Positions 41,591 to 64,000 of a stretch of DNA of 64,000 bases are shown piece after piece (position 1 is the first letter of the stretch; every line of letters starts with the position of its first letter). The stretch is taken from contig CAWDXE010000007.1 of NCBI GenBank assembly GCA_963806185.1, positions 32,001 through 96,000 of the forward strand, in the 5' to 3' direction. The notes beneath the pieces are model-generated. The model made no database searches, had not been told where the DNA came from, and was given only the letters and a program-made list of their open reading frames with translations. The stretch comes from an uncultured candidate division Zixibacteria bacterium (GTDB taxonomy: Bacteria; Zixibacteria; MSB-5A5; GN15; FEB-12). The position numbers were made by a program, and so were the translations under genes.

Positions 41591-41610
41591 ACGAATCGGC
41601 GACAACAACA

Positions 41611-44659: not shown

Positions 44660-44681
44660 GAGTGACGACAAGGGTCATGTC

Positions 44682-45665: not shown

Positions 45666-45731
45666 TTGGGGAACGGATCGGTTCCGCAAAAACCCCTTGC
45701 CCACAATGTTTTAGGCCGTCATATTCCGGCC

Positions 45732-47328: not shown

Positions 47329-47414
47329 GGAGAGGTGGCTGAGTGGTCGAAAGCGGCGGTCTCGAAAACCGTTATACCCTTCGGGTATCTAGGGTTCGAA
47401 TCCCTACCTCTCCG
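47329..47414 (+). tRNA. tRNA-Ser(CGA)
   Basis: GGAGAGGTGGCTGAGTGG...GCGGT-CT-CGA-AA-ACCGT, long variable arm, GGTTCGAATCCCTACCTCTCCG. Confidence 0.96.
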
Positions 47415-47716
47415 CATGTAACATATTGATATATAATTGGTTATGGCCATTTCTTGGCCGCCTGCCTTTTCGTACCCTCTCCGCTGTCAATATCTTTAAA
47501 GTTAGTCATTGTAGCAATGAGAACTACTCTAATTGCTGTTGATTCGATCCTCCATCCTTTTGCACTTCGAAGCTTTTAACAAACTATTGCACTGAATATC
47601 ACCAATCGAATAACGACACAAATGGCCCTCACGGCCTCCATCGATAAGACTTTGCCTGATTGTGATAAACTACTCTGATGCGACGGAACAACGGGTAAAT
47701 GCTCGCCAAAGATGTC

Positions 47717-47762
47717 TTGACACTCTGCCGATATGAATATATATTCGCCTAGGCGAATATAT
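47717..47762 (+). promoter_or_regulatory. sigma70 promoter with 24-bp perfect palindromic operator (ArsR-type)
   Basis: TTGACA-N17-TATATT; ATATATTCGCCTAGGCGAATATAT at 47739-47762. Confidence 0.8.
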
Positions 47763-47811
47763 GAATATGTTGCGGTCTGGTTTACGGACTGAGTTAATAG
47801 AGTGAGAGAGT

Positions 47812-48414
47812 TTGAAAATGAAAATGTCAGTGTATGATCCTGCTATGTGCTGCCCGACTGGTGTCTGTGGTCCGGCAGTCGATCCGAAACTGCCGCGCTT
47901 TGCAGCCGACCTCGAGTGGCTTGGAAATCAAGGCATAACCGTTGAACGGTTCAACCTGGCCCAGCAACCGGCGGCCTTCGCACAGAATCCGGTGGTAAAG
48001 GAAATGCTCGGTAAGCAGGGTAACGACTGCCTGCCGCTGATCTTGGTGGATGGCGCAGTCGTGTCCACGGTCAGTTATCCAACCCGAGAGAAACTCGCTG
48101 CCTTTGTCAATCTCTCGTATGCTCGGGTCCCCAGCATCTTCACCGATGCAGTTTCCGAATTGGTCGCCATTGGGGCCGCGATTGCCTCAAACTGCGAACC
48201 ATGTTTCCGCTTCCACTATGATAAGGCGCGGAAATTGGGTGTCTCTAAAGAGGATATGGCTCTGGCCGTCGCAATCGCTCAGGGCGTCAAAGAAACTCCG
48301 GCCAAGTCGATTCTTGAAATGGCTGATCGTTACCTCAAATCGAAAAGTACCGACGAGCCAATGACTCTTCCCATGGCAGAAGTCGCCTCCAAATCCAGCG
48401 GCAAATGCTGCTGA
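47812..48414 (+). CDS. arsD: Arsenite metallochaperone ArsD fused to a CMD/AhpD-like domain
   Basis: YDPAMCCPTGVCG...YPTR, then ELVAIGAAIASNCEPCFRFH; ends KCC. Confidence 0.88.
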   Translation: MKMKMSVYDPAMCCPTGVCGPAVDPKLPRFAADLEWLGNQGITVERFNLAQQPAAFAQNPVVKEMLGKQGNDCLPLILVDGAVVSTVSYPTREKLAAFVNLSYARVPSIFTDAVSELVAIGAAIASNCEPCFRFHYDKARKLGVSKEDMALAVAIAQGVKETPAKSILEMADRYLKSKSTDEPMTLPMAEVASKSSGKCC

Positions 48415-48427
48415 CCAAGGCTAGATT

Positions 48428-50227
48428 ATGTTGATACTAGATAACCCATCGAGGAATCTGTTCTTCACCGGCAAAGGGGGTGTGGGAAAGACATCGTTAG
48501 CCTGTGCCACGGCGGTGTCCCTTGCCGATCGCGGCAAGAGGGTGCTACTGGTAAGCACAGATCCCGCATCAAATCTCGATGAAGTCCTTAATGTGCACCT
48601 TTCCGCCGTCCCGACCGCGATACCGGACGCTTCCAACTTGTTCGCGCTCAATATCGATCCCGAAGCGGCTGCTCACGCCTATCGGGAGCGAATGGTCGGG
48701 CCGTATCGGGGCCTGCTTCCTGAAGCAGCCGTAGCCAGTATAGAAGAGCAGCTGTCTGGCGCCTGCACCACTGAGATTGCCGCGTTCGACGAATTCGCCA
48801 AACTACTGGGCGATCCCGCTGCGACGGCCGACTTCGACCACATCGTTTTCGATACCGCGCCGACCGGCCATACTCTGCGCTTACTGCAGTTGCCGGCAGC
48901 GTGGAGCGACTTCATTGAGTCGAGCGCGGGTGGGACCTCGTGCCTGGGTCCGCTATCCGGATTGCAGACGCAGCGTGAACTCTACGCGCAAACGGTCCGC
49001 GCATTGGCCGATCCAGCTATCACGACTCTGGTTCTCGTAAGCAGGCCGGAGCGAGCGGCTCTGCAGGAAGCGGACCGGACGCGACAGGAACTGTCGGCTG
49101 TCGGCGTTGGAAATCAGCACTTCATTCTCAATGGGACGTTCGTTGCCCAGGACCGCGAAGATCCAATTGCTTTGGCGCTTGAAGAACGTGGCAGACAAGC
49201 GGTGAACTCCATGCCGGCAGCTCTGGCACAACTTCCGCAGTCTCGAACACAGCTTCTTCCCTTTGGTCTGATTGGCGTACCTTCGTTACGGGCTCTGGTA
49301 AATGCGGACCCCCGAGAAACGACTCCAGCGGCACCTGCTCGACAAACTGCTGGAATCACTTTGCCGGCGCTTTCGACGCTGATTCGCCAATTGGAGACAA
49401 GCAAGCGCGGCGTGATAATGGTTATGGGCAAAGGGGGAGTAGGCAAGACCACTGTCGCGGCCGCTATTGCGGTAGCACTGGCCGATCATGGCCATACCGT
49501 TCACCTGACTACCACCGACCCGGCCGGACAGGTGCAGTCGGCACTGGCAAATAGTGTGGCGGGGCTGACCGTCAGCCGCATCGACCCCGTTGCCGAAACC
49601 GAGGCGTATCGTCTGGAAGTAATGCGCACTGCCGGTGGCAAGCTGGATGATCAGGGACTTCGTCTGTTAGAGGAAGAGCTACGCTCTCCCTGCACCGAAG
49701 AGATGGCGGTCTTTCGCGCGTTCGCGCAGAAGGTTGCCGAAGGGGCAAATGAATTTGTCGTGCTTGATACCGCTCCGACCGGTCACACGCTCCTGCTCCT
49801 GGATGCTACTGAGGCCTACCATCGGCAGGTCTCGCACACTATGAGTGATGTGCCGGATTCCGTTCGGCAGCTACTCCCGCGGCTGCGGGATGCGGAGTAC
49901 ACCAAGGTGCTCATCGTCACCTTGCCGGAAGCGACACCGGTCCATGAGGCCGCGCAACTCCAGAAGGATTTGAAACGAGCCGAAATCACGCCGCACGCCT
50001 GGGTGATCAACCAGTGTCTGACGCCGCATGCGGTCTCTGACCCCGTCTTGAAAACCAGGCAGGCGAGAGAAGGTCTGTTTATCGACGAGGTGACGCAGGT
50101 GCACAGCACAACGGCGTACATGATCCCATGGATGGAAGCAGGAGCAACTTTGGCAGACAGCCTGCGCAAAGTGGTGGCCGCCACGGCGGTAAGCGACAAA
50201 CCTATGGTCAGCAGACAAGGAAGTTAG
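48428..50227 (+). CDS. arsA: Arsenical pump-driving ATPase
   Basis: Two GKGGVGKT and two DTAPTGH motifs. Confidence 0.96.
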
Positions 50228-50232
50228 GAATT

Positions 50233-51306
50233 ATGGCGCAGCAGGAAGCAAAGCGATTGTCGTTTCTTGACCGCTACTTGACACTCTGGATTTTCCTGGG
50301 CATGGGAGCAGGCGTGGCACTGGGATGGCTGCTACCGCAGACCGAGCAGTTCATCAACCGCTTTCAGGTTGGCACGACCAATGTCCCGATCGCCATTGGT
50401 CTCATTCTGATGATGTATCCTCCGTTGGCGAAAGTGAAGTACGAGGAGCTTGGAGACGTATTCCGCAACACGAAAGTTCTCGGGCTCTCACTATTACAGA
50501 ATTGGGTGATCGGACCGATTCTCATGTTTTTCCTGGCGATTGCGTTTCTCTCGGGCTATCCCGAGTACATGGTCGGGTTGATCATGATCGGCCTGGCGCG
50601 CTGCATTGCCATGGTGATTGTCTGGAACGAATTGGCCAAGGGAGACACCGAGTATGCCGCTGGACTAGTGGCATTCAACTCGATTTTCCAGGTGCTCTTT
50701 TATTCAGTCTATGCCTGGGTGTTCATCACCGTGCTGCCGCCACTGTTCGGTCTCAGCGGCTCAGTAGTCGATGTCAGTATGAGGCAAATCGCCGAATCGG
50801 TATTCATTTATCTGGGGATTCCCTTTATCGCAGGTATGCTCACCCGCCTGATCGCGCTCAAGACCAAAGGACGGGAATGGTACGAGCAAAAGTTCATTCC
50901 GAAAATCAGTCCAATTACTTTGATCGCTCTGCTCTTTACAATCGTTGTGATGTTCAGTCTCAAAGGGAATCTGATCGTGCAAATCCCGCTTGACGTGGTG
51001 AGGATCGCGGTGCCACTCTTGATCTATTTTGTCGTCATGTTCCTGGTTAGTTTTTGGATGGGTCGCAAAGCGGGCGCAGACTACTCAAAAACGGCCACCC
51101 TGTCCTTCACGGCCGCCAGTAACAACTTCGAGCTGGCGATTGCTGTGGCCGTGGCGGTATTTGGCATTAACTCCGGCGCGGCCTTTGCGGCCGTTATTGG
51201 ACCGCTTGTCGAGGTGCCCGTTCTCATTGGATTGGTCAATGTGGCACTCTATTTCCAGCGAAAATACTTCGCACAACCGAACGCAGCTATGGAGGCGGCA
51301 CGATGA
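50233..51306 (+). CDS. acr3: ACR3-family arsenite efflux transporter
   Basis: [34 protein letters not shown]. Confidence 0.96.
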
Positions 51307-51641
51307 AGACTCACGAAGCGTTTAAGGGGCTGTCTGATCCGACGCGGCTTCGCATCGTCGCGCTTCTGCTGGAGCAGGAACTCTGCGTGTGTGACTTGAT
51401 GGCCGTCTTGCAATTGCCTCAATCAACAGTGTCCCGTCATATGATACGCTTGAAAGCCGCGGGGCTGGTCGCGGATCGACGCGCGGGCAAATGGGTGCAC
51501 TATTGCCTGCTTGAAAATTCCCTGGTAAGCGATCTGCGGCGCCTGCTGCAGAACCATTTGGCCGGCGCTGAGCCCTATAAGAAAGACGCAACTGCCTTGC
51601 GACGATATGTCCGAAACGGGAACTGTGCTGAAAACTCGTGA
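51303..51641 (+). CDS. arsR: ArsR/SmtB repressor (ELCVCDL type)
   Basis: [23 protein letters not shown]. Confidence 0.93.
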
Positions 51642-51654
51642 GAAGATCGAACCG

Positions 51655-52095
51655 ATGAACGACAACAAGACACTGCGTATTTTGGTGCTGTGCACCGGCA
51701 ATTCCTGTCGATCGCAGATCGCCGAAGGGTACTTTCGTCACTATGGAGGAGACAGAGTGGAAGTCTTCTCTGCCGGGCTTGAGCCAAAGGGAGTCAACCC
51801 ACGGGCGATTCAGGTGATGAAGGAAGTTGGCATTGATATATCGCAGCATGCTTCAGACCACCTGTCAAAGTACATGGGCCAGTCATTTGATTACGTCATT
51901 ACTGTCTGCGATAACGCGGCGGCCAATTGCCCGGTGTTTCCGGGAGCCGGAACGAAACTGCACTGGCCGTTTGAAGATCCCGCCGACGCGACTGGCACGG
52001 AAGAACAGGTGTTGGCGGTTTTCCGTCAAATACGTGACGAAATTGGTGCAAAGGTGAAGAACTGGTTGAGGACAACCCAAGAGCTGGCCCGATAG
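51655..52095 (+). CDS. arsC: Thioredoxin-coupled arsenate reductase (LMW-PTP fold)
   Basis: CTGNSCRSQ, TVCD....CP, HWPFEDP. Confidence 0.93.
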   Translation: MNDNKTLRILVLCTGNSCRSQIAEGYFRHYGGDRVEVFSAGLEPKGVNPRAIQVMKEVGIDISQHASDHLSKYMGQSFDYVITVCDNAAANCPVFPGAGTKLHWPFEDPADATGTEEQVLAVFRQIRDEIGAKVKNWLRTTQELAR

Positions 52096-52235
52096 CTTTT
52101 CGGGATATGGCTTCCTTGTCCGACCAAAGGCAATGCGCAGTTTGTGAGTAAATGAACAACAGAGGCGCGACGCCTGTTTATAAAATGGAGAAAGAAGTCG
52201 ATTACATGGGTCCACGATAGTAAGGTAACCACAGA

Positions 52236-52997
52236 ATGGAGGAACAGATGTTCAGGAAAATCAGCATTGTGACCGTTGCTCTGCTGCTTATGGCGGTAGC
52301 GGCCTTTGGCGCGGCACAACAACAACTGGAAGCGGCCGCAAAATCCGGCAACGTGGCCTTCGTCTTGGTGTATGACGCCACTGCTACCACTCTCGAGCAG
52401 GCGCGTCAGCTAACCGCGCAGGCGGTCGGCCGCGTGCCCGGATCGATAGCGATCGAAGTCAATCGCGGTGACGCCTCCGAAGCGGATTTTGTGAAGCGAT
52501 ATGGGCTGGCTACTGCTCCGGTACCGCTCATCTTAGTGAGCTCATCTGCCGGCGTCATCACCGGCGGTGTCATCGCCGCCCAGGCCAATGTTGACCAACT
52601 GGTGAAACTTGTACCATCACCCAAGAAAGCTGAAATCATCCAGGCGTTGTCGCAGGGAAATGCCGTGTTCATTACCGCGAGTCGGAAGAGCATGGCGACA
52701 GCAACAACTGTCAATAGCGCATGCGCCGCCGCGTGCCAACAGATGGCTGGGAAATCGGTACAAGTGACTGTTGATATGGATGATCCAAAAGAGGCCGGTT
52801 TCCTGACCGAGATGAAAGTCAATCTGCAATCAGCAGAACCGATCACGTTGGTAGCCAACGCTCAGGGGCAGATTGCCGGGATGTACACTGGGGCCATGCA
52901 GGTTACCGATCTCGTGACCGCCGCGACCAAGAAAGTTGGCGGCTGTTGCCCATCGACTGTTGCCAAACCGGACGCTTCATGCGCGCCTAAGAAGTAA
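52236..52997 (+). CDS. Secreted protein, two thioredoxin-like repeats, C-terminal CC
   Basis: Signal peptide; internal repeat; CAAAC and GGCCP...SCA. Confidence 0.7.
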   Translation: MEEQMFRKISIVTVALLLMAVAAFGAAQQQLEAAAKSGNVAFVLVYDATATTLEQARQLTAQAVGRVPGSIAIEVNRGDASEADFVKRYGLATAPVPLILVSSSAGVITGGVIAAQANVDQLVKLVPSPKKAEIIQALSQGNAVFITASRKSMATATTVNSACAAACQQMAGKSVQVTVDMDDPKEAGFLTEMKVNLQSAEPITLVANAQGQIAGMYTGAMQVTDLVTAATKKVGGCCPSTVAKPDASCAPKK

Positions 52998-53008
52998 GGA
53001 AAGCCAAA

Positions 53009-54229
53009 ATGAAGCTTCAAACTATACTCTGGCGCGAGCTATGGCTGCGAAAGTCGCAGCTCGTGTCGGCCTTACTTGGAATCACGCTTGGCATCGCCGT
53101 AATAGTTGGCATTCAATCGGTTTCAGCGGTTTCCGAGACAGCGGTCAAGGTAAGTCTCGACAACTTGGGGGCTAATATCCTGGTGCTGCCTCAAGCCGCG
53201 TCGGTTGATGACTACTATTCGTCTGATATTGACGCACCGACGTTTTCCGAAGACTATGTAGAACGACTTGCCACGTCGATGTTGCCGGGTGTCGACAACC
53301 TTTCCCCAAAGCTAACCCGGCGCGTGAAAGTTGGCGATGTGCCAATTATCCTCACTGGTATTCTACCAGCTAACGAGCTGGCTGCGAAACCGATTTGGCA
53401 AACGGCCGGTTTGGTCGGGGACGGTCTGAATGCAGCGTGTGATCCTGGCACCACGGCTAATCAGTCGTTTGGATATCAGGACGAACGGCTGCAACGCAAG
53501 GCGGTCGACTCGCTGGCGACCACTGATGTGTTGGTCGGTAGCAGCGCTGCGCAGCGGTTGAATCTGCGCGAGGGACAGACCGTGACAATTGAAGGTAAGA
53601 CTTTTACTGTTGCCCGCGTTATCCCAGAGACCGGCACCATTGACGACAGTCGCGTGTATGCCCACCTGCACACGGTCCAGCAGCTTTTGGGGACTGGCCG
53701 GCAGGTCAGCGCCATCGAGATCATGGGGTGCTGCTCAGCTATCTCGGATGGACTCCTTGGCAAGCTCCGCAATATCTTGCCCGATACGCGGATTACGACG
53801 ATCAATCAGATTGTCAGCACGCAAATCAGGACCAATCAGCTCATGAGCAAGATCTCCATGGTCTTTCTGGTGATCATCATCATTGTCGGAGCCATAACGA
53901 TTGGCAACTACATGTGGGCGAATGTCGAAGAGCGACGTCGCGAGATCGGCATTCTGATCACCATCGGTACGAAGCGTTCGGCCATCTACCGTCTCTTCTT
54001 GTCAAAAGCAGTGTTCCTGGGTGTAATTGGCGGCATTGGCGGTTTCATCGTTGGGACCGGGGCTGCAATGATTCTTGGACCGCAACTAGCTGGGCTACAT
54101 GTTTCGCCGATGCCACTTTATTTGCTGTTATCAGTGGTCGTAGCAGTGTCGATAGCATTGCTTGGCAGTATTCTTCCGGTTTACCGGGCAGCGAGATTTG
54201 ACCCAGCTGTCATCATGCAGGAGGTGTGA
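53009..54229 (+). CDS. MacB/FtsX-type ABC permease with periplasmic CC
   Basis: N-terminal TM, large periplasmic loop (IMGCCSA), ERRREIGIL, three C-terminal TMs. Confidence 0.9.
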   Translation: MKLQTILWRELWLRKSQLVSALLGITLGIAVIVGIQSVSAVSETAVKVSLDNLGANILVLPQAASVDDYYSSDIDAPTFSEDYVERLATSMLPGVDNLSPKLTRRVKVGDVPIILTGILPANELAAKPIWQTAGLVGDGLNAACDPGTTANQSFGYQDERLQRKAVDSLATTDVLVGSSAAQRLNLREGQTVTIEGKTFTVARVIPETGTIDDSRVYAHLHTVQQLLGTGRQVSAIEIMGCCSAISDGLLGKLRNILPDTRITTINQIVSTQIRTNQLMSKISMVFLVIIIIVGAITIGNYMWANVEERRREIGILITIGTKRSAIYRLFLSKAVFLGVIGGIGGFIVGTGAAMILGPQLAGLHVSPMPLYLLLSVVVAVSIALLGSILPVYRAARFDPAVIMQEV

Positions 54230-54898
54230 GTGATGTTTGCCATTCACAACTTGAGCAAGGTCTACACCTCTCAACACGGCACGGTTCGGGCACTGGATGA
54301 CATATCGCTGACCGTCGAGAAAGGCAGTTTTGTTGCCGTGACCGGCGGGTCCGGTTCGGGCAAGACGACCATGTTGTTGACGCTTGGCGGTCTCATTCGA
54401 CCGACGAGCGGAACGGTGTCGTTCTCCGGCAAGACCATTTACACTATGTCCGAGCCAGAGCTTGCCGAGTATCGCAATCGCAAGATTGGTTTTGTACTAC
54501 AGACATTCAATCTGATCCCATACCTTACAGCGTTGGAAAACGTCATGCTTCCGATGATATTTTCTTCTAACGGCAACGGCACCGCGCAAGCCCAGGCGGA
54601 AGCATTGCTGGAGAAAGTAGGCCTAAAAGATCGCGAAGAACATCTGCCGAGAGAGCTGTCCGTGGGGCAACAGCAGCGGGTGGCTATTGCGCGAGCTCTC
54701 GCCAATAGTCCGGAGGTAATTCTTGCTGACGAGCCAACGGGCAATCTGGATCCCAGTCTGTCACTCGAAGTGCTGAAGATTCTCAAACGGCTCAATGAAG
54801 AAGAGGGACGAACGGTTATCATGGTGACTCACAGCCCGGAAGCGGCGACATTCGGGAATCGCCAGGTTCGCCTAAAAGACGGTAAGGTACACGACTGA
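54230..54898 (+). CDS. LolD-type ABC ATPase
   Basis: GGSGSGKT, LSVGQQQR, ADEPTGNLD. Confidence 0.93.
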   Translation: MMFAIHNLSKVYTSQHGTVRALDDISLTVEKGSFVAVTGGSGSGKTTMLLTLGGLIRPTSGTVSFSGKTIYTMSEPELAEYRNRKIGFVLQTFNLIPYLTALENVMLPMIFSSNGNGTAQAQAEALLEKVGLKDREEHLPRELSVGQQQRVAIARALANSPEVILADEPTGNLDPSLSLEVLKILKRLNEEEGRTVIMVTHSPEAATFGNRQVRLKDGKVHD

Positions 54899-54899
54899 T

Positions 54900-55836
54900 A
54901 TGGGGAAACACGACAACAAGCGCGACCGGCACGGCAAAAAGCACTCCGGCAAGCGCAGCCACAGGCAATCGGTAGGTAGCGGGACCTCCCGCCATTGGGT
55001 GGGATGGGCAGCGCTCGCAGTTGTCCTGGTCGCCGGCGTAGGCATCGCATGGACGCTTTTCAAAGAAGAAAGTCCGAGAATTACTGCGTCTACTCCGGTG
55101 ACCAAGCTTCCGGAGTCAGTGTTACCAAAGAATCTGGAGACCAGGCCCGCTGAGTCGAAGCCAGTACCGCCACCGGCTGCGCCGCGTCTCGACATTCCGG
55201 AACCGGAATTTGATTTCGGCTTCGTGCCACAGAATGCGAAGATAAGTCACGTGTTCTGGCTACACTCGGCCGGCACCGACACACTCAAGATCATCAAGGT
55301 CAACCCCGGCTGAGGCTGCACCCAAGCGCCCTTGGAAAAGGACGCACTGGCTGTCGGCGACAGCACTACCCTTGAGATTATCTTCAGTACCGGAAGCTAC
55401 AGTAACCAGGTGAGCAAAGCGCCGTCGATATTGACCAACGAAGCGCAGGGGGCCAAAAACGTCACCATCAAGGCCAACATCGTCACAAAGCCGGACTCGA
55501 CTTATCCGATCGTCATTCAACCGCCCAAGATCGAATTTGCGAGCCGGCGACAGCACCGAAACGATGGAGTTTACGATCACGAACAAGTCGGACGGAGCGC
55601 TAATTCCGAGAATTGTTAGCGCACCGCGCCGTTTTGTCAGTATAAACTTGCCGCAGTCTATTCCGGCGGGCGAATCTACCATAGGGAGTGTTACACTCAA
55701 GAAGGCCGGACTTAAGACGGGTTTCGAGAAGTCAGTGACCGTCCAATTAAACGATCAGGCGAAGAGCCGCTTTACCATTCCGATCAAGCGATCGGTGGTT
55801 GGCCAAGCTGTTGTTGTTCCGGCCGGAGGGCATTGA
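54900..55836 (+). CDS. Membrane-anchored DUF1573-like Ig-fold protein, probable selenoprotein (UGA 55311-55313); apparent frameshift near 55540
   Basis: FDFGFV..HVFWL..GTDTLKIIKVNPG-UGA-GCT continues in frame into ORF 55332..55619; hairpin at 55326-55345. Confidence 0.75.
55322..55350 (+). promoter_or_regulatory. Putative bacterial SECIS element
   Basis: GCGCCCTT-GGAA-AAGGACGC with lower CCA/TGG pairs; G-starting loop 21 nt after the UGA. Confidence 0.65.
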
Positions 55837-55920
55837 GTTTCGTGACGGCCCAGGACACATAGCGCATTTGCATCATTTGAGGATAGTCGAACAGTCTACC
55901 CAAATAACAGGAGGATTCCA

Positions 55921-56379
55921 GTGAAACGATTTATTATAACGATGGCCCTTTTCCTTATGGCCATTACAATGGCCTGTAACAAATCATCGGAAACTCCTGC
56001 TCGCCAAGGTGCGGGCACTAATTCGGGCGCAGCACAGCCTGCCACTGCATCTCCCGATTTGTCCAAGGCACCACCTGTCACCGTGGCTAATCCTCCTGCG
56101 GCTACACCACAAACTCCCTCTGGGTATGCTACTGCTCCGGGCATGAATCCTCCGCACGGTCAACCGAGTCATCGCTGTGATATTCCCGTTGGGGCACCAC
56201 TTAATTCGCCGCCAGGTACACAGTCGACACCGGTCGTTCCTTCACAGCCCAATGCCACTGTCCAGACTCCGCCAACTACGACGGCTCCGGGCATGAATCC
56301 ACCGCATGGACAGCCGAATCATCGCTGTGATATTCCCGTAGGAGCGCCCCTCAGCTCAGCCCCTTCGCAGCCGAAGTAA
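55921..56379 (+). CDS. Pro/Thr-rich lipoprotein with duplicated NPPHGQPxHRCDIPVGAPL motif
   Basis: Lipobox TMAC; two near-identical 25-aa repeats. Confidence 0.8.
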   Translation: MKRFIITMALFLMAITMACNKSSETPARQGAGTNSGAAQPATASPDLSKAPPVTVANPPAATPQTPSGYATAPGMNPPHGQPSHRCDIPVGAPLNSPPGTQSTPVVPSQPNATVQTPPTTTAPGMNPPHGQPNHRCDIPVGAPLSSAPSQPK

Positions 56380-56444
56380 TTGTGCTGGCTACAGTTAAGA
56401 GGAGAGCGAAAATTCGTGAGAAATTCTGTTGATCTTGTTGGTAA

Positions 56445-56462
56445 TTTGGCGATATTACCAAG
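56445..56462 (+). promoter_or_regulatory. Putative ArsR operator
   Basis: TTTGG-N8-CCAAG; a second copy precedes arsP. Confidence 0.55.
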
Positions 56463-56491
56463 TATAAGGAAATAGCGAAGGAATTCAAAGT

Positions 56492-56818
56492 ATGGATAAT
56501 AAGACTAAAGCACATTTCGAGGCCAAGGCCAGAATTATTAAGGCGATGGCGCATCCGACGAGGCTCTTTATTGTGGATGAGCTGTCGCGAAAGGAACGGT
56601 GTGTATGCGATCTGACCGAAATGATCGGCGCGGATACATCGACCGTGTCCAAACATCTGTCCATTCTAAAAGCGGCCGGGATAGTGTCCGATGACAAGCG
56701 CGGTCTGCAGGTCTTCTACTCCCTGAAGGTGCCGTGCATCTTGAATTTCTTCGGATGTGTTTCGCAGGTGCAGAAGCTGTCGGCGAAGGAGCAGGTCGCG
56801 CTGGTCGTACGAAAGTAG
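56492..56818 (+). CDS. arsR: ArsR/SmtB repressor
   Basis: KAMAHPTRL, ERCVCDL, STVSKHL. Confidence 0.92.
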   Translation: MDNKTKAHFEAKARIIKAMAHPTRLFIVDELSRKERCVCDLTEMIGADTSTVSKHLSILKAAGIVSDDKRGLQVFYSLKVPCILNFFGCVSQVQKLSAKEQVALVVRK

Positions 56819-56834
56819 TTTTTTTGGGTCCATC

Positions 56835-56852
56835 TTTGGCTGTTTGGCCAAA
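56835..56852 (+). promoter_or_regulatory. Putative ArsR operator
   Basis: TTTGGC-TGTTTG-GCCAAA inverted repeat. Confidence 0.6.
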
Positions 56853-56878
56853 TAGACATATGAAAATAGGCGTTTGAT

Positions 56879-58180
56879 ATGAAATGGAAAGCAGAGTGGA
56901 AGCCCCTGACCCTAATAATTATCATATTCCTGGTCAGTTTCTATCTGCCGGTCGGCAAACCGCGTTTTGACAATGCGGTTACTGAATCGTTACAACTGGT
57001 AAAATGGTACGCGCAAGAGCATGTTCTACTCTGCCTGATACCGGCGTTCTTCATTGCCGGAGCGATTGGAGTCTTTGTCAGCCAGGCTTCAGTCATGCGC
57101 TACCTGGGAGCCAAAGCCAACAAGGTTCTCGCCTACGGTGTGGCGTCGATCTCTGGAACCATTCTGGCAGTATGCTCATGCACGGTGCTCCCCCTGTTTG
57201 CGGGTATCTATCGGATGGGCGCAGGGCTCGGCCCGGCCAGTGCCTTTCTCTACTCCGGACCGGCAATCAACGTGCTGGCCATATTTCTGACCGCGCGGAT
57301 TCTCGGGATCGAAATGGGTGTGGCCCGCGCAGTCGGCGCGGTCGTGTTCAGCGTAATCGTTGGGCTCATCATGCATTTCATCTACCGCAAAGAGGAAACG
57401 GCCAAAGCTGACGCTCAAATGGCTCTGCCCGATCCACCGCCGACGCGCCCGCTCTGGCAGACGATACTCTATTTTGCTTCAATGATAGCCATACTCGTCT
57501 TCGCCAACTGGGGCAAGTCAAGCGAACCAGTCGGCATCTGGAATGCAATTTACGAACTCAAATGGTATCTGACTGCCTTGTCAGCTGCGGCCCTCGGATT
57601 GATGCTGGCTACCTGGTTTAACGTCACCTGGTGGAAAATTGGCGCGGTCGCAGTTCCGGTCGCGATCCTAGGCCTGGTCTTTCGCGAATATCCGTTGATT
57701 CCGTTCGCTGCGGGGTTTGTAGGGCTCTCCATCATTACCAGCACCGATGACGGCGAGATGGGGAGCTGGTTCGAACAGACCTGGGGATTCGCCAAGCAGA
57801 TTCTGCCGCTACTTCTCTTTGGCGTTCTCGTCGCAGGACTTCTCTTGGGCAGGCCCGGACACGAGGGAATCATTCCTTCCGAGTGGATCAGTCGCTCGGT
57901 GGGCGGCAACTCACTCTGGGCGAATCTCTTTGCCTCGGTAGCAGGCGCCTTTATGTATTTCGCCACGTTGACAGAGATCCCGATTCTGCAAGGTCTCCTG
58001 GGGAGCGGCATGGGTAAGGGTCCGGCGTTGGCGCTTTTGCTGGCCGGACCGGCGCTTTCTCTTCCGAGCATGCTAGTACTGCGGAGCATTATGGGCCTTA
58101 GAAAGACGGCAGTGTTTGTGAGTATCGTGGTAGTCATGGCTACTATCACGGGAATGACGTACGGCTATTTCTTTGGATAG
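56879..58180 (+). CDS. arsP: ArsP/DUF318-family permease
   Basis: AVCSCTVLP, YSGPAIN, YFATLTE, AGPALSLP. Confidence 0.85.
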   Translation: MKWKAEWKPLTLIIIIFLVSFYLPVGKPRFDNAVTESLQLVKWYAQEHVLLCLIPAFFIAGAIGVFVSQASVMRYLGAKANKVLAYGVASISGTILAVCSCTVLPLFAGIYRMGAGLGPASAFLYSGPAINVLAIFLTARILGIEMGVARAVGAVVFSVIVGLIMHFIYRKEETAKADAQMALPDPPPTRPLWQTILYFASMIAILVFANWGKSSEPVGIWNAIYELKWYLTALSAAALGLMLATWFNVTWWKIGAVAVPVAILGLVFREYPLIPFAAGFVGLSIITSTDDGEMGSWFEQTWGFAKQILPLLLFGVLVAGLLLGRPGHEGIIPSEWISRSVGGNSLWANLFASVAGAFMYFATLTEIPILQGLLGSGMGKGPALALLLAGPALSLPSMLVLRSIMGLRKTAVFVSIVVVMATITGMTYGYFFG

Positions 58181-58190
58181 GAGATACACA

Positions 58191-58424
58191 ATGAAACTGA
58201 TTCAAATCCTAGGCACGGGCTGTCCCAAGTGCAAGAAGCTCGAAGAGCAGACGCGCGAAGCGGCCAAGGCCATCGGCCTTGAGTGTGAGATCCTCAAGGT
58301 GACCGATATCGAGGCGATCATGCGCATGGGCGTGATGATGACCCCGGGGCTGGCAATCGACGGGCAGGTTGTTCTGTCTGGGAAAGTACCGTCGGTTGAT
58401 GAACTCAAAAAGATTCTGGCCTGA
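58191..58424 (+). CDS. Small redox-active disulfide (thioredoxin-like) protein, ArsE-like position
   Basis: ILGTGCPKC, MTPGLAIDG. Confidence 0.88.
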   Translation: MKLIQILGTGCPKCKKLEEQTREAAKAIGLECEILKVTDIEAIMRMGVMMTPGLAIDGQVVLSGKVPSVDELKKILA

Positions 58425-58437
58425 AAGGGAACCTCAG

Positions 58438-58929
58438 ATGAATAAGGCAAAAGTCGCAGCGATCCTCGTAGGCATCGCAGCAATGTGGGTGGGTGGATAC
58501 CTGTTGGCCAATGCGGGTAACGGAACAGCAGATTCGCCGTCCACCGTTTCTCCTACCGCCGCCACGACCGATAGCGTTACCGCTATACCCCACAAAGTCG
58601 TTGCCTACTATTTCCACGGCAATGTCCGCTGTGTGACCTGTCGAAAGATCGAAGCATACACCGGCGAAGCGATTGACAGCGGTTTCGCGGCTGAACTCAA
58701 ATCCGGATTGCTTGAGTGGCATGCGATAAACACGGATTCATCGCAAAACGAGCATTATTTGGAGGACTACCAATTATTCACCAAGTCGGTAATTCTCTCA
58801 GATCTGCACCATGGTAAGCAGACCCGCTGGAAAAACCTCGACAAGATCTGGACGCTGACGGGAAACAAGTCCGACTTCATGAAATACATCCGGGATGAAG
58901 TCAGGATCATGCTGGATTCAACCAAGTAA
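58438..58929 (+). CDS. ArsF-family thioredoxin-like protein
   Basis: N-terminal TM; YYFHGNVRCVTCRKIE. Confidence 0.8.
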   Translation: MNKAKVAAILVGIAAMWVGGYLLANAGNGTADSPSTVSPTAATTDSVTAIPHKVVAYYFHGNVRCVTCRKIEAYTGEAIDSGFAAELKSGLLEWHAINTDSSQNEHYLEDYQLFTKSVILSDLHHGKQTRWKNLDKIWTLTGNKSDFMKYIRDEVRIMLDSTK

Positions 58930-58943
58930 AGGAACGACAGACA

Positions 58944-59414
58944 ATGACCCCTCGCAAAATCATCACGTTTGTTCTGCTCCTTCTGGTTGGAGTGAGTATT
59001 GTCGTCTTCGTGGCGCGACAAACAGGTCTTATTTCCGCGGACCTGGTATCAATCGGTGCATCAGCGGATGCGCCCCGACACAAGGTCATCGCCTATTATT
59101 TCCACGGCACGGTGCGGTGCGAAACCTGCCTGAATATCGAGCACTACACCGACGAAGCACTCAAGACCTACTTTGCCGATGACCTGGCCGATGGCCGCTT
59201 GGAATGGCGCGTGATCAACCGCGAAGTACCACCCAATGAACACTTTGTACAGGACTATGGACTGTATTCTCAGGCTCTGATCATCATCGACTCAATACCG
59301 GGACAGAAAGCCGAATACAAAAACCTCGAGGCCATGTGGGATTACGCCCACGACAAACCGGCGTTTATGGCATGGGTGCGTGGTGAAGTCGATCAGTACC
59401 TGAGGAGGCTGTAG
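58944..59414 (+). CDS. ArsF-family thioredoxin-like protein (paralogue)
   Basis: YYFHGTVRCETCLNIE. Confidence 0.8.
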   Translation: MTPRKIITFVLLLLVGVSIVVFVARQTGLISADLVSIGASADAPRHKVIAYYFHGTVRCETCLNIEHYTDEALKTYFADDLADGRLEWRVINREVPPNEHFVQDYGLYSQALIIIDSIPGQKAEYKNLEAMWDYAHDKPAFMAWVRGEVDQYLRRL

Positions 59415-60103
59415 TGGAGTCACTCTACGTTGCGGCTCTTTCGGCGATCTGGCTGGGCATACTGACTTCCATCAGCCCCTGTCCGCTCGCCACCAACATT
59501 GCGGCCGTTTCCTATATAGGCAAGCATGTGGCCAGTGGCCGGCATGCGGTGTGGTCCGGACTTCTCTATGTACTGGGCCGTCTCGTGACCTATGTGGCGG
59601 TGGGCGCGATCGTGACCGCTGGTGTTCTCTCCATTCCGGGCGTGTCGAATTTCCTGCAGAAGTACATGAACAGCTTGCTTGGCCCGGTCCTTATCCTGGT
59701 TGGACTCGTCTTGCTGAACTGGTTACCGATCAATATACCGGGCCTTACCCCCAGCGATAAAATGCAGGAACGCGCCTCACACGGGAGTCTTTGGGGTGCA
59801 TGTGCCCTTGGTGCCATCTTTGCGCTGTCGTTTTGCCCTGTGTCGGCGGCTCTGTTCTTCGGAAGTCTGATTCCGCTATCGGTTCAGCACCACTCATACT
59901 TACTCTTGCCATCGCTATACGGCTTCGGTACTGGATTGCCGGTGCTGGTGGTGGGCATTATGCTGGCCTATAGTGCTAAATCGGTGGGAAGGCTGTTTAC
60001 CGGTATCCAGCGCTTTGAGAGTTGGGTCCGCGTCATGACAGCGGTGATCTTTATTATCATCGGGATCTATATGATCCTGCGATACGTTTTTTACCTATTC
60101 TAA
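59414..60103 (+). CDS. ArsG-family (DsbD/CcdA-like) membrane protein
   Basis: SISPCPLATNIAA, ALSFCPVSAALFFG. Confidence 0.85.
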   Translation: MESLYVAALSAIWLGILTSISPCPLATNIAAVSYIGKHVASGRHAVWSGLLYVLGRLVTYVAVGAIVTAGVLSIPGVSNFLQKYMNSLLGPVLILVGLVLLNWLPINIPGLTPSDKMQERASHGSLWGACALGAIFALSFCPVSAALFFGSLIPLSVQHHSYLLLPSLYGFGTGLPVLVVGIMLAYSAKSVGRLFTGIQRFESWVRVMTAVIFIIIGIYMILRYVFYLF

Positions 60104-60172
60104 TCATGGGCCGGTGCCGGGCAAGAGCTCGACGCCGCCACTTACGCAATTCAAACGCATGCAAATGTTCGA

Positions 60173-60219
60173 TTGACACTCGTGCGAGAATCCATATATT
60201 TCGATATATGTCGAACTAT
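60173..60219 (+). promoter_or_regulatory. Promoter and operator of the hgc operon (probably leaderless arsR)
   Basis: TTGACA-N16-TATATT; TTCGA-N6-TCGAA (60200-60215) overlaps ATG 60208. Confidence 0.7.
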
Positions 60220-60573
60220 AGTACTAAGACCCTCAAGCGTGTTTCGCAACAGTTTGCCGCCCTGTCTAATCCCAACCGAGCCGCAATCTTTGCGCGACTG
60301 GCCGGTTGTTGTTGTGGAACGGCCGAGACCTGCAGACATGACGCCATGCGCACGTGCGTAGGAGATTTGGGAAAAGATCTCAGCATCGCCGCTTCGACGG
60401 TGTCTCACCATATCAAAGAGCTCCATCGGGCTGGTCTGATTAAGCTCGAACGATGTGGCAGAACGGTCAGATGTTGTGTTGATACAAAGACCGTGAAGGA
60501 AATGGCTGGATTTCTAGATGGCGCAACCGCAGCGGGACGACAAGCGCCGACGAACAAGCCGAAACGAGCCTGA
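60208..60573 (+). CDS. Cys-rich ArsR/SmtB regulator heading the hgcAB operon
   Basis: FAALSNPNR, GCCCG, CVGDLG, STVSHHIKEL. Confidence 0.88.
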   Translation: MSNYSTKTLKRVSQQFAALSNPNRAAIFARLAGCCCGTAETCRHDAMRTCVGDLGKDLSIAASTVSHHIKELHRAGLIKLERCGRTVRCCVDTKTVKEMAGFLDGATAAGRQAPTNKPKRA

Positions 60574-60589
60574 CAATCGGAGGATAGAC

Positions 60590-61186
60590 GTGGACGATAT
60601 CAACAAAGACAATCTACCCGGCTGCTGTGAGGGTGGCCAGTGCTGCTCACCAACGCCAGGTGGCGATACCCGCAAACCTGACCGTTGGAAATCTCTGATG
60701 TTCTCGGGAGTGATTTTGCTGGCATGTGCAGTGGCAGCATACTCTCTGTTCTGGCGAAGTCCGGATGCCGCGACCTCTGCCTGTTGCCCGCCGGGATCAG
60801 CGGCCGCGGTAGCTTGTGGCTCGTCGGCGGTCATTCCGGTCTTCGACCACTCCATGGCTCCGGCGGGTTTGTCGCTGTATCTCTTGTTATCGGCGACCGA
60901 TTCGCTTAGCCAGCAGCAGTTCGCGGTAATAAGTGAAGTTCGAGGGGCCGTGGAGTCAAAGGGGTCGCGGTTGGAACTTGAGACGTTGAGGCCCAGCGAC
61001 GGCTTCTTTCCGGCAATGGTCAGTGGTCATGGTATCACTTCCTTTCCGGCATTTCTGGTGTTCGGACAGCGCGACAGTTTGACCCTGAGTCTCACGAGTT
61101 TTCGAAGCGATACGATATTGAGCGTCTTTGTCCTGCCAGCTGAATCGTCGGAGGTGTCAACTACGTCCGAAACTAACCCTCAATAG
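60590..61186 (+). CDS. Single-TM hypothetical protein with three CC pairs
   Basis: GGAGG RBS plus GTG; GCCEGGQCC, TM, ACCP, SFPAF. Confidence 0.7.
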   Translation: MDDINKDNLPGCCEGGQCCSPTPGGDTRKPDRWKSLMFSGVILLACAVAAYSLFWRSPDAATSACCPPGSAAAVACGSSAVIPVFDHSMAPAGLSLYLLLSATDSLSQQQFAVISEVRGAVESKGSRLELETLRPSDGFFPAMVSGHGITSFPAFLVFGQRDSLTLSLTSFRSDTILSVFVLPAESSEVSTTSETNPQ

Positions 61187-61189
61187 CTG

Positions 61190-61895
61190 GTGAATGCGAT
61201 GGATTGGATAGAGCAAGTACTGCGATCCCCGGAATTCAGCATGGCTGCCCTGCCGGCGGCCCTCGTGCTGGGCCTGCTAACGGCAGTAACGTCGTGCTGC
61301 AATTTTGGCATCATCGCAGCTGTGGTAGGATATGCCGGAAGTCGCGACGAGCAGTATCATCGCCGCGACGCCGTCGTGACGGCCATTTCCTTCATGGTCG
61401 GCACGGTCGTGGCCCTCTCCGTGTTGGGGCTTCTCATCGGCCATGTCAGCGGACTAGCCGGAACCTCATTCAAACGCTACAGCACACTGATCATGGGGTT
61501 CGCTGTAATAATTGCCGGCCTGTGCCGCACTGAAGCTGCTGCCATTTCGATTGCCCTCCGTTAACTGGTCAAAAGTGAAGCGTCCCGGCGGTCGTTTCGG
61601 GTCGATTGTTTTCGGATTAGTCATCGGAACTGCGAGTATCGCGTGCACTGCAGCCTGCTGCGGCCCGCTGGTTCTCGTAGTCTTAGGCATGACCGCAATA
61701 GCGGGTCAGGCACTGCAGGGGGCAGTGATACTGGGGCTCTTTGCTATTGGCTACGGTCTTCCTCTGGCTGCGCTGATGCTTGGCGTTGGCCTCGGACGAA
61801 CCTCTGCGATTGCCCAGAAGTTGACTAAACCGATTCGCGTCGTTGCCGGATCGGGACTGCTTTTTGTGGGGTTCTGGTTACTCGCGACTATGTGA
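61190..61895 (+). CDS. CcdA/DsbD-like six-TM protein with CC motifs (apparent +1 frameshift near 61522)
   Basis: LLTAVTSCCN in TM1; ACTAACCGPLVLVVLG; LFAIGYGLP. Confidence 0.75.
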
Positions 61896-61907
61896 GGATG
61901 CGCGGAT

Positions 61908-63062
61908 ATGCTTGACACACCAGACCGTGGTTTGCCGCCCTGTTCGCCTGATTGCTGCTCGCCGGTGCAGATCACTACTCTTCAAAGCCATCCCCGGGTG
62001 GCGATACGCATGCCCATTCCCAAAGATCCGTGGGTCATCGGAACGGTTGCATCGCCATTCGGGGAAATCCCTCAGGTTGATGCGAAGTTGCAGTGGCTCG
62101 ATACTCTTGGCTCCTGGAAGGCTCGATGGGGCATCGGGCGTTCGAATTACAGCGTCCAGCCGCGCCTCTATGCCGTCGGCAATCCCGCCAAAACATCACC
62201 GGTGTTCGTTACGGCCAACTATAAGATGAGTTTTGACCGTCTCCGGTCGAACCTGGCTGATATCGACGGCTGGATCCTGGTTCTGGATACCAAGGGCATC
62301 AACGTATGGTGCGCGGCTGGTAAGGGCACCTTTGGCACCGAGGAACTTATCCGTCGAGTTGAGGTAGAGGGTCTGAAGCAGATTGTGTCTCATCGCCGCC
62401 TGATTCTCCCGCAGTTGGGTGCCACCGGCGTCAGCGCGCACCACACGCGCGAGCGCAGCGGTTTCCACGTTTTCTACGGCCCCGTCCGGGCGAAGGATAT
62501 TCCAGAGTTCATGCAAGCCAGGATGAAGGCGACCGAAGCCATGCGGAAAATCACCTTTACGCTGGCCGAACGGGCAGTCCTGATCCCGATCGAGTTTGTA
62601 AACAATCTTAAATACGCGCTCTTCGCAGCTGCGTGCCTGCTGCTACTCACCGGCGTTGGGTTGGATATCTACTCTCTGGATCGAGTGAAGGATTTCGGCA
62701 TCACCAATGCCGGCTTGGTACTTCTGTCAACTTTGTGCGGTGCATTGTTGCCCGCGCTGCTTTTGCCGTGGTTACCGGGGCGGGCGTTTTCGTTCAAGGG
62801 AGCTGCTGCCGGGCTACTGCCAGCAATCGGCATCGCCGCTCTGATGTGGTGGCATCCGGAGACTTTTCGCAATCGGGTCAGCGGCACTAGCTGGATGTTC
62901 ATTTTCCCAGCGGTGTCGAGCTTTCTAGGGATGAACTTCACGGGTAGTTCGACTTATACGTCGTTGTCAGGCGTCAAGAAAGAGATGCGCGTTGCCTTGC
63001 CAGCACAGATTTCAGTCGCTGTGTGCGGACTCGTATTGTGGCTAGTAGGATTGTTCATATGA
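61908..63062 (+). CDS. hgcA: Mercury methylation corrinoid protein HgcA
   Basis: Cap-helix GINVWCAAGKGTFG, TANYKMSFD, LPQLGATG, C-terminal TMs ending NFTGSSTYTSLSGV. Confidence 0.97.
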   Translation: MLDTPDRGLPPCSPDCCSPVQITTLQSHPRVAIRMPIPKDPWVIGTVASPFGEIPQVDAKLQWLDTLGSWKARWGIGRSNYSVQPRLYAVGNPAKTSPVFVTANYKMSFDRLRSNLADIDGWILVLDTKGINVWCAAGKGTFGTEELIRRVEVEGLKQIVSHRRLILPQLGATGVSAHHTRERSGFHVFYGPVRAKDIPEFMQARMKATEAMRKITFTLAERAVLIPIEFVNNLKYALFAAACLLLLTGVGLDIYSLDRVKDFGITNAGLVLLSTLCGALLPALLLPWLPGRAFSFKGAAAGLLPAIGIAALMWWHPETFRNRVSGTSWMFIFPAVSSFLGMNFTGSSTYTSLSGVKKEMRVALPAQISVAVCGLVLWLVGLFI

Positions 63063-63355
63063 CGACCAAGTATCTCTCGGGCGTTGTAACGCTCGAGCTT
63101 AATTCGGATAAGTGCAATGGCTGCGGTATGTGCCTACAGGTTTGTCCGCACGCCGTCTTTGCGCTCGAGAATAAGCGGGCGAAGATTGTCGATCTCGATG
63201 CATGTATGGAATGTGGGGCTTGTGCTTTGAATTGCCCAGAAGGCGCGATTAGCGTTCGGTCCGGAGTTGGATGTGCAGCGGGCATTTTGACCGGAGCTTT
63301 ACGAGGAACTGAACCCACTTGCGGTTGCGGAGATGACTCGGGGGGTTGCTGCTAA
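63059..63355 (+). CDS. hgcB: Mercury methylation ferredoxin HgcB
   Basis: CNGCGMCLQVCP, CMECGACALNCP, GVGCA, terminal CC; ATGA overlap with hgcA. Confidence 0.96.
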   Translation: MTTKYLSGVVTLELNSDKCNGCGMCLQVCPHAVFALENKRAKIVDLDACMECGACALNCPEGAISVRSGVGCAAGILTGALRGTEPTCGCGDDSGGCC

Positions 63356-63518
63356 CATATGGCCTCAAGTGTGCACCGTAGTATTTCAACAGACATGTTG
63401 TATGATGTTGAAGTCACTTGTATAGCGGTTCAGCTAAAGTTGCATATCACAAAGCTATTTGCCAGAGTTGGGGCCGGAGCTTGCGAATATCTGTTGAATG
63501 CCTCGAAGCTCTTAAAAC

Positions 63519-63718
63519 GGAATGCGCAATCCATGATCGGATTGTGGCGTTTGGGACCAATTGGGGACCGTGGGACTTCAAAACAGTCAATACGCACTAC
63601 GAATCATTCAAAACTATTTGATGACGCAATCAATTGGTGGAACTCACCTTACGGCGTAATTGACACAATGACAATCATTTATGGGAAACATACAGTACGA
63701 ATCCCTACCTCTCCGCAT
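63519..63718 (+). mobile_element. Island right-end module and attR
   Basis: GGGACCAATTGGGGACC arm-type repeat at 63553; 21-bp tRNA-Ser 3' duplication at 63698; homologous to 5237-5436. Confidence 0.85.
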
Positions 63719-64000
63719 TTTTCTTACTAAATCATTACAATTGAAGTTGTAGACGATGTGCGCTATGTTGGAGATAATGGGCGGGCAGGTCGGAAGACTT
63801 GCTGCGCACGGAACCCACCGCTGGCCTTGGGCCAGCGAAGATAAGAGAAAGACGCGGGCCACCGGCCGTCGTATTCGGGAAATAAGGTGTGCTACCGGCT
63901 ACGTGTGCCACCAGTCGACAATATGCTCATCTTTCCACCGAAGCCAGATGGTGTCGGGAGCCTGTGGTCCTCTCGTGAGCAGAGAATCTTCTTTCGCCCA

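Follow-up and report, generated by a model that had tools for sequence, protein, structure and literature searches.

The 16.3-kb island described here was located directly behind a tRNA-Ser(CGA) gene in the window, i.e., the whole 64,000-nt stretch (positions 32,001 to 96,000) analyzed from contig CAWDXE010000007.1 of an uncultured Zixibacteria bacterium (assembly GCA_963806185.1; G000), and it carried the mercury (Hg)-methylation genes hgcAB together with arsenic-resistance (ars) genes. It was probably a cargo island whose limits are set by a duplication of the tRNA-Ser(CGA) end plus an arm-type repeat and which is devoid of integrase and transfer genes. A tyrosine integrase of Zixibacteria that targets tRNA genes likely carried out the insertion, a second hgcAB operon likely reached the host in this way from another Zixibacterium, and re-mobilization would require a helper element. 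Direct observations are the boundaries, the layout of the right arm, the absence of mobility genes, the separation into three operons, and the same-arm integrases at the same tRNA in relatives. Island architecture and the link between hgc and ars genes are already known, each separately. The patchy spread of hgcAB is usually ascribed to transfer or loss, with the vehicle unnamed in the literature searched, and here hgcAB lay between defined recombination sites with candidate integrases identified, giving a testable route of spread.

Boundaries of the island

The assembly searched genome-wide comprised 3.65 Mb (82% complete, with low contamination), and the contig containing the island was 1.04 Mb in length. 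The 21-mer CGAATCCCTACCTCTCCGCAT, composed of the last 19 bases of tRNA-Ser(CGA) plus 2 nt, was present exactly at 47397-47417 and 63698-63718, and all genes in the 16.3 kb between these two cores were co-oriented on the + strand. Every 14-mer of CGAATCCCTACCTCTCCGCAT was confined to those two sites across the assembly, and 0 of 100 shuffles matched the 21-bp core with up to 3 mismatches allowed. An earlier sequence-only reading of this DNA had proposed both the exact duplication of the tRNA-Ser 3' end and the order of the co-oriented genes, and both were borne out, the former by the 14-mer search and the shuffles and the latter by Pfam and NCBIfam calls. The boundary features were as follows.

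47329..47415, + strand, tRNA-Ser(CGA), integration target (ARAGORN, Rfam)
47397..47417, + strand, core of the left attachment site (attL), T-loop to tRNA 3' end, 21 bp
63551..63569, + strand, tandem arm-type repeat TTGGGACCAATTGGGGACC, predicted integrase arm site, 147 bp before the attR core
63698..63718, + strand, attR core, displaced tRNA 3' end, 21 bp

The tRNA-Ser(CGA) gene lay downstream of tadA in many family members. The island had a GC content of 54.5% (vs 56.3% and 57.2% in the flanks) and ranked among the 5 lowest-GC and the 6 most tetranucleotide-atypical of 218 composition windows. Most named top matches of the PurF encoded in the flank were Zixiibacteriota (~80% identity), in keeping with the host presumed by the sequence-only reading. 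A PilZ gene was found 2.5-3 kb after attR in the host and 2-6 kb after the tRNA in three of four genomes of g23, the likely sister genus of the host in the RpoB tree (SH-aLRT 89, moderate, with the host row partly out of frame); the fourth g23 genome examined had an integrase at tRNA-Ser(CGA). An empty tRNA-Ser site, suggested earlier as a check, was found in near-empty form in this sister genus, and the genome collection held none from the same species.

At window 47475-47486, ~70 bp past tRNA-Ser(CGA), part of the tRNA end recurred in degraded form (CCCTCTCCGC); locus L046 has a similar 23-bp repeat 71 bp beyond its tRNA, and the host copy was perhaps left as a scar by an earlier unit. A 123-aa open reading frame (ORF) at 63359-63730, considered as an integrase remnant, was rejected by Pfam, NCBIfam, and integrase hidden Markov model (HMM) scans.

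Arm-type repeat at the right end

Read on the model of arm sites in lambda-type integrase systems, the tandem TTGGGACCAATTGGGGACC was predicted to be an integrase arm site. The same arm repeat ended the 32.8-kb tRNA-Leu(CAG) island of the host, and a variant of it ended two tandem tRNA-Ser(TGA) islands. Counting G000, it occurred in 29 of the 160 genomes of the order, vs 5 matches in 4 genomes for the reversed-pattern control, and about 19 of 30 excised arm-repeat loci had a tRNA, a transfer-messenger RNA (tmRNA), or a tRNA fragment within ~50-160 bp, as judged by eye. Three genomes had the arm repeat immediately ahead of a tyrosine-integrase start: G086 and G046 at tRNA-Ser(CGA), and G130 at tRNA-Met. 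G012 harbored an integrase-less 24-kb Ser(CGA) island, with the arm likewise 147 bp before the core. Six right ends aligned in near-register with near-identical arm-to-core spacing, the right arm of the island being intact; the exact pattern of arm, spacer, and Ser core was displayed, among 318 loci, only by the host island and G012, and the arm-plus-core pattern was found in 0 viral contigs. Of the 16 complete arm-bounded units, 15 lacked an integrase (a hand count from a sample biased to short units).

Other arm-bounded units were seen in the host and in relatives. The tRNA-Leu(CAG) island (G000:C7:4568-37433), which was integrase-less, ended inside the window at 5269-5433 with the same arm repeat, and its cargo, judged from translations, was composed of organic-acid catabolism, stress, efflux, and Ni/Co-uptake-like genes. 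The two tandem units at tRNA-Ser(TGA) (G000:C7:121911-160305; 19.9 and 18.4 kb) were also integrase-less, with right ends near-identical over ~190 bp. At tRNA-Leu(TAA), six Zixibacteria (L232, L233, L237, L244, L245, and L249) had integrase-less units of 2-14 kb arranged in arrays; these units crossed over at the anticodon loop and carried the same arm repeat. A second arm type, tandem TTCTAACA with a period of 11, was found in L046, L049, L060, L051, L059, and L273, and it marked other units and integrases at tRNA-Ser(CGA).

Mobility genes and the tRNA-Ser(CGA) site in relatives

The 25 island ORFs were scanned with Pfam and NCBIfam, and integrases were searched with profiles of the relatives' integrases, with a second HMM added for the divergent second recombinase family. 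No integrase or remnant was found within the island by Pfam, NCBIfam, or the integrase HMMs, as the sequence-only reading had supposed in stating that no intact integrase was there. The island kept both att cores as an exact 21-bp duplication and contained no integrase or transfer genes, as do cis-mobilizable elements (CIMEs); an own recombinase with a relaxase, as in integrative mobilizable elements and, with a type IV secretion system besides, in integrative and conjugative elements (ICEs), was absent from it, and integrase, replication, and virion genes, as in prophages or satellites, were not called among its 25 ORFs by Pfam or NCBIfam. In the whole assembly there was no serine recombinase, and the tyrosine recombinases were two Xer-like ones only.

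The tRNA-Ser(CGA) region was compared in 43 relatives, 7 of them with <1 kb beyond the tRNA. An integrase was encoded right after this tRNA in eight of the 43, and neither hgcA nor the island gene cluster was found in the DNA fetched from these relatives. Among 23 proteins scanned from the integrase-bearing elements, int, xis, replication (DnaB/Rep O/AAA_25), and restriction-modification (RM) genes were recognized; no conjugation genes were seen among these 23 proteins of likely helper elements, which therefore were not ICEs. By their gene content, the autonomous elements with the same arm look satellite-like.

hgc operon, second copy, and HgcA phylogeny

The hgc operon, organized as arsR-X-ccdA-like-hgcA-hgcB, occupied the right end of the island.

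60200..60215, no strand, near-palindrome TTCGATATATGTCGAA, spanning the arsR3 start
60205..61186, + strand, arsR3 and X, the latter a Cys-rich membrane-anchored protein
61190..61895, + strand, ccdA/DsbD-like membrane protein, 1-base frameshift near 61522
61908..63062, + strand, hgcA (NF040863 449>275; cap-helix motif GINVWCAAGKG; N-terminal CC)
63059..63355, + strand, hgcB (NF040864 129>99; two CxxCxxCxxxC motifs, terminal CC)

HgcA had the cap helix and a C-terminal membrane domain (full-length model match, with three segments above hydropathy 1.6), and the adjacent hgcB encoded two 4Fe-4S motifs plus a Cys pair. An N-terminal CU/CC motif of HgcA is described in 10.1101/2022.07.06.499078. The near-palindrome TTCGATATATGTCGAA is likely the operator of the hgc operon, and a palindrome of this type preceded this arsR in all eight order-level loci having the gene, both host copies included.

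A second arsR-X-ccdA-hgcA-hgcB operon was found on contig C1 of the host, with the same five genes and 68% nucleotide identity to that of the island. A two-copy bin is mentioned, as unconfirmed by its authors, in 10.1101/2020.04.01.018762. As divergent copies may occur in pairs within a single genome, counting hgcA or basing taxonomy on it can be misleading. Zixibacteria have already been listed among putative Hg methylators (PMC12484752).

The C1 copy had no right boundary that could be found and hence is not claimed as att-bounded. A ~50-bp unit whose end resembles the 3' end of tRNA-Asp occurred six times in 38 kb behind tRNA-Asp (G000:C1:631774-669505), with one further copy near tRNA-Asn and the last copy ~130 bp before the C1 hgc operon; these units are cassette boundaries or REP-like repeats.

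HgcA above cut-off was detected in 48 of 285 phylum genomes, with matches in 10 of the 107 other family genomes. G281 (E 8e-4) was left out of the HgcA set because it was judged not to be HgcA, and G132 was represented by one of its three fragments; in the tree, the second-copy row of G172 had an out-of-frame tail and a long branch. Island HgcA had no relative above 72% identity and shared 69% identity with the C1 copy; it was sister to HgcA of G085 (genus g49; 98/94) and not to the C1 copy, and a sister relation with the latter was rejected borderline (approximately unbiased [AU] test, p=0.044). It fell into an 8-row clade spanning families f1, f4, and f5 plus one metagenome contig (SH-aLRT 99, quick tree), and monophyly of HgcA was rejected for families f1 and f4 (p=1e-4 and 6e-4, respectively). 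hgcA was found in none of five g23 genomes and none of eight g53 genomes, and it was absent from two of three g49 genomes. All named close relatives being Zixibacterial, this suggests that hgcAB of the island was exchanged within Zixibacteria, with no cross-phylum donor indicated.

Arsenic genes and ABC module

The island had the gene order arsD(+CMD)-arsA-acr3-arsR-arsC-like-CC protein-MacB-type ABC pair-DUF1573-lipoprotein-arsR-arsP-arsE(trx)-arsF-arsF-arsG, followed by the hgc operon, and the three operons had separate promoters or operators.

47739..47762, no strand, perfect 24-bp palindrome behind a TTGACA -35 box
47812..48414, + strand, arsD with C-terminal CMD/AhpD domain (NF033727 128>90, PF02627)
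48428..50227, + strand, arsA ATPase (TIGR04291 788>650)
50233..51306, + strand, acr3 arsenite exporter (TIGR00832 472>283)
51303..51641, + strand, arsR, CVC-type (NF033788 89>55)
51655..52095, + strand, arsC-like thioredoxin-type arsenate reductase (PF01451; TIGR02691 166, below cut-off 174)
52236..52997, + strand, exported protein with C-terminal CC motif, without Pfam or NCBIfam family
53009..54898, + strand, MacB/FtsX-type ABC permease and ATPase (PF02687, PF12704, PF00005)
54900..55836, + strand, DUF1573/OS_HP2-like protein (NF041425 53 bits, under cut-off 100), one frameshift
55921..56379, + strand, lipoprotein with repeated His/Cys motif, whose homologues adjoin the same modules in metagenome loci
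56492..60103, + strand, operon 2, arsR-arsP-arsE(trx)-arsF-arsF-arsG (NF033788, PF03773, TIGR00412, NF040494 twice, NF040495)

NCBIfam cut-offs were passed by ArsD, ArsA, Acr3, two ArsR, the ArsE-type thioredoxin, two ArsF, ArsG, HgcA, and HgcB; the third ArsR barely passed (55.8 vs 55), and ArsP was called by Pfam. ArsM, ArsH, ArsI, Arr, and Aio were not called among the 25 ORFs, so that the "full arsenic-resistance arsenal" of the sequence-only reading was overstated. The palindrome at 47739..47762 is likely the ArsR operator of operon 1, and a similar palindrome lay upstream of acr3 in one sister-genus genome. The host had another acr3-arsR-arsC operon outside the island; with this and the other hgcAB copy, the island therefore brought redundancy. 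In operon 2, arsE, arsF, and arsG families were clustered (TIGR00412, NF040494 twice, and NF040495 above cut-off), and these genes presumably represent the ArsEFG aromatic-arsenical resistance system, a name taken from the NCBIfam models. As in that system, genes of the arsE, arsF, and arsG families succeed one another downstream of arsP in the island, but its arsF was duplicated.

Atlas look-alikes of the exported CC protein were unnamed or thioredoxin-labelled, and the protein was present in 11 of 107 family genomes. The DUF1573/OS_HP2-like gene at 54900-55836 likely has an in-frame TGA read as selenocysteine: this TGA lay in a PG-U-GCT motif in the island gene and in two host paralogues (G000:C7:586000-587700), and all three host genes likely encode selenoproteins. 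Since frame breaks were common in the assembly (seen in 12 of the 44 conserved host genes that were tested, with RpoB spread over several frames and many indel errors), the frameshift near 61522 in the ccdA-like gene is likely an assembly error, and that in the DUF1573 gene is possibly one as well; the ccdA-like gene was intact in the second hgc copy of the host.

Other hgc loci and occurrence of the modules

The comparison was also applied to 49 hgcA loci from 48 other Zixibacterial genomes, many of them on short contigs. The survey of hgcAB contigs for direct repeats, another check suggested earlier, had a divided outcome: three of the 49 loci had a tightly repeat-bounded hgc operon, one of them in a tmRNA-type att unit, and 44 showed no flanking repeat. 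The three were (i) G045, in which the five-gene arsR-X-ccdA-hgcAB operon lay between exact 49-bp repeats containing the same arm family, within a 13-kb integrase-less unit bounded by tmRNA-end fragments and found through the arm repeat; (ii) G168, with the hgc operon between 78-bp repeats (94%) next to an IS481 transposase; and (iii) G172, in which a 7.3-kb block with the X-macB-abc-DUF1573 module of the host island plus hgcAB lay between ~110-bp repeats (79%). G172 had two hgc copies, the second being disrupted by an insertion sequence (IS) 9 kb from tmRNA. In L256, one of 14 metagenome loci, the second arm type was present ~70 bp past the hgcB end, without a clear core.

The att fragments of G045 had been tried as tRNA-Sec, which was rejected by their match to the tmRNA end. 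The uniform repeat screen flagged five of the 49 loci, two of which (G204 and G244) were set aside, their flanking repeats being multi-copy palindromes. The ~110-bp repeat, with complementary ends, stood next to hgc operons in two family-f5 genomes (L299:3516-3622 and 10860-10967; L300:3691-3803; L291:666-734); it was not called attC, having no Rfam match and a weak fold.

Modules of the island were found apart from each other: (i) the acr3-to-abc module at 75-79% identity in G023, a genome without hgcA; (ii) an ars block plus X-ccdA in L261:8017-14951, with a 4Fe-4S membrane protein and a small partner instead of hgcAB; and (iii) the DUF1573-lipoprotein part at 83% in L262. The flanks fetched contained ars genes in 3 of the 49 Zixibacterial hgcA loci, and a partial all-genome scan found ars genes near hgcA in 16 of 80 loci (overlapping partly with the 49); hgc-ars co-location is therefore occasional. 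HgcA had no match in plasmids, and in viral contigs one stretch matched HgcA, with no locus displayed. L080, a Planctomycetia record, carried the same set shuffled: acr3, arsR, trx, arsF, arsG, hgcAB, arsR, X, macB, and abc.

Proposed origin and mobilization of the island

The island is CIME-like and notable for its cargo, and G045 provides a second case from the same att family. Under the proposed mechanism, (i) an element of the type with int, xis, and replication genes would have integrated at the tRNA T-loop; (ii) its integrase and left arm would have been deleted afterwards; (iii) a new element at this hotspot would supply an integrase and a left arm and could be excised along with the island through the retained attR, by CIME-type accretion and cis-mobilization; (iv) the cargo would be a mosaic of three modules circulating separately; and (v) the ars modules may be favored by arsenic, and hgcAB, controlled by an ArsR of its own, would be carried as a passenger. 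Arsenic could in this way select the island, carrying hgcAB along; hgcAB lay in its own ArsR operon, which was usually found without ars genes.

Several observations weigh against a delivered, re-mobilizable island. The inner left arm, seen after this tRNA in integrase-bearing relatives, was not recognizable (missing or eroded); no cognate or helper integrase was found in the 82%-complete assembly by the relatives' integrase HMMs, nor were a relaxase (PF03432, the one relaxase family covered genome-wide) or a TraG-type ATPase (PF19044). The stretches of the 49 Zixibacterial hgcA loci held no integrase, and a flanking repeat was unseen in 44 of them, by a screen that misses even the 21-bp core of the host island. 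The whole island was not found in any other genome or contig, and its best matches were single modules at 68-83% nucleotide identity, so that recent transfer of the whole unit is unseen. The host held another hgcAB copy on C1. HgcA was monophyletic within six genera, and inheritance there was therefore mostly vertical; the nearest HgcA came from a genus near the host in the RpoB tree, and island HgcA may therefore have descended vertically, with losses. Finally, acr3-arsR-arsC was 70-75% identical to the g23 operon 4-10 kb past the same tRNA, close to the 72-73% of tadA between the host and g23, and the arsenic core may therefore be local; the Acr3 tree lacked resolution.

The sequence-only reading had regarded the island as a physical vehicle for horizontal spread of Hg methylation. 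A discrete, site-specific island is upheld by the attR architecture, the near-empty sister site, the composition, the HgcA clade, and the other bounded operons; continued mobility is not, with no integrase, relaxase, left arm, or helper in the assembly and the whole island in no second genome. The HgcA tree, which that reading had suggested comparing with the species tree, likewise spoke for transfer in part: the clade crosses families and family monophyly is rejected, and HgcA is monophyletic within six genera. Neither lineage-wide synteny nor mis-assembly, the two cases it had set against itself, was seen.

It is rather unlikely that the island is a fixed relic, in which an old tRNA scar was filled in place, with local ars genes and then the hgc cassette brought in through IS or homologous recombination, and in which hgcAB never rode an att-bounded unit. 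Such filling agrees with a cargo mosaic of three modules that are each found apart in other genomes, with the housekeeping-level identity of the acr3-arsR-arsC core to the sister genus near the same site, with the inner repeats that the hgc operon has of its own in G045, G168, and G172 (one beside IS481), and with the 15 integrase-less units among the 16 counted by hand; it is at odds with hgcB ending just 196 bp before an intact arm repeat plus an exact core, with the island ORFs, none of which was called as an IS gene, with the repeats found, which included no inner one of boundary type, and with the presence of two independent hgc operons in units belonging to one att family. An old in-genome duplicate or a relocated ancestral copy of the C1 operon, later lost in most relatives, is an improbable source of the island operon: the same five genes at 68% nucleotide identity, the same operator, and the same HgcA subclade would be expected of it, but island HgcA groups with that of G085 rather than with the C1 copy (at the borderline AU value given above), losses would be needed in g23 (0/5), g53 (0/8), and two of three g49 genomes, and the HgcA clade includes other families. 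An assembly artefact behind the repeat or the island is hardly credible, even though indel errors are frequent (RpoB is split over several frames, and 12 of the 44 genes tested had frame breaks): 21 bp of repeat would not suffice to produce a mis-join within a contig of 1.04 Mb, the distance of the arm repeat from the core recurs in other genomes, and the gene past attR has its match in the sister genus.

Extending the cargo-island reading to a class of elements is tentative and goes somewhat beyond what we would expect to hold: Zixibacteria might traffic a self-regulated arsR-X-ccdA-hgcA-hgcB cassette on integrase-less, arm-bounded tRNA/tmRNA units mobilized by satellite-like tyrosine-integrase elements, which would be the first identified vehicle class for the horizontal spread of Hg methylation; a single mobile HgcA subclade would then have crossed families and given rise to two-copy genomes.

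Comparison with known systems

CIMEs, as described in PMC5704250, have lost integration and transfer genes and kept att cores at a tRNA 3' end, occur as tandem units at hotspots, and have integrase-bearing elements at the same site in relatives, all of which was shared by the Zixibacterial case; the island differs in its eroded left arm and hgcAB cargo, and its mobilization is a proposal, excision of a CIME together with an accreted element being described in the same source.

The Dehalococcoides ssrA islands of PMC3146451 likewise carry geochemically important cargo, are arranged in tandem at tmRNA/tRNA ends, and in many cases have no integrase: 15 of them are reported without an integration module, and co-excision is suggested there. 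In contrast to these islands, which have serine recombinases (DsiB) and a near-identical vcrABC cargo (99.4%), the Zixibacterial island implicates a tyrosine integrase and is without a known near-identical copy of its cargo.

An ArsR-like gene also heads hgcAB in Pseudodesulfovibrio mercurii ND132, whose ArsR2 responds to arsenic and S-adenosylhomocysteine (10.1101/2022.10.17.512643), and published hgcAB-ars neighborhoods have ars genes nearby, with arsenic proposed as a transfer driver (PMC7438021). Unlike these loci as published, the Zixibacterial operon has five genes with X and ccdA, is att-delimited, and occurs in two full copies in a single genome of low contamination. PMC7438021 found hgcA neither on viral contigs nor close to insertion sequences or transposases, and PMC9690531 found it on none of 18,731 gammaproteobacterial plasmids; PMC10083202 favors vertical descent with loss for hgcAB. 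hgcAB on an att-bounded island was not described in the literature searched, which covered few subscription journals.

Other features of the window and the host genome

A tRNA-Sec gene was present in the window at 42419-42514. Two further duplications were seen in the host genome: (i) a 28-bp duplication of tRNA-Met, with copies 314 bp apart and a short ORF between them (G000:C5:189656-190050), and (ii) a ~85-bp duplication next to tRNA-Asn, with copies 1.4 kb apart (G000:C1:491321-492809). Paired repeats plus clusters of repetitive extragenic palindrome (REP)-like palindromes were located in the window at 7632-11240, 27404-29640, and 41382-45667, and we take these paired repeats to resemble dockerin domains.

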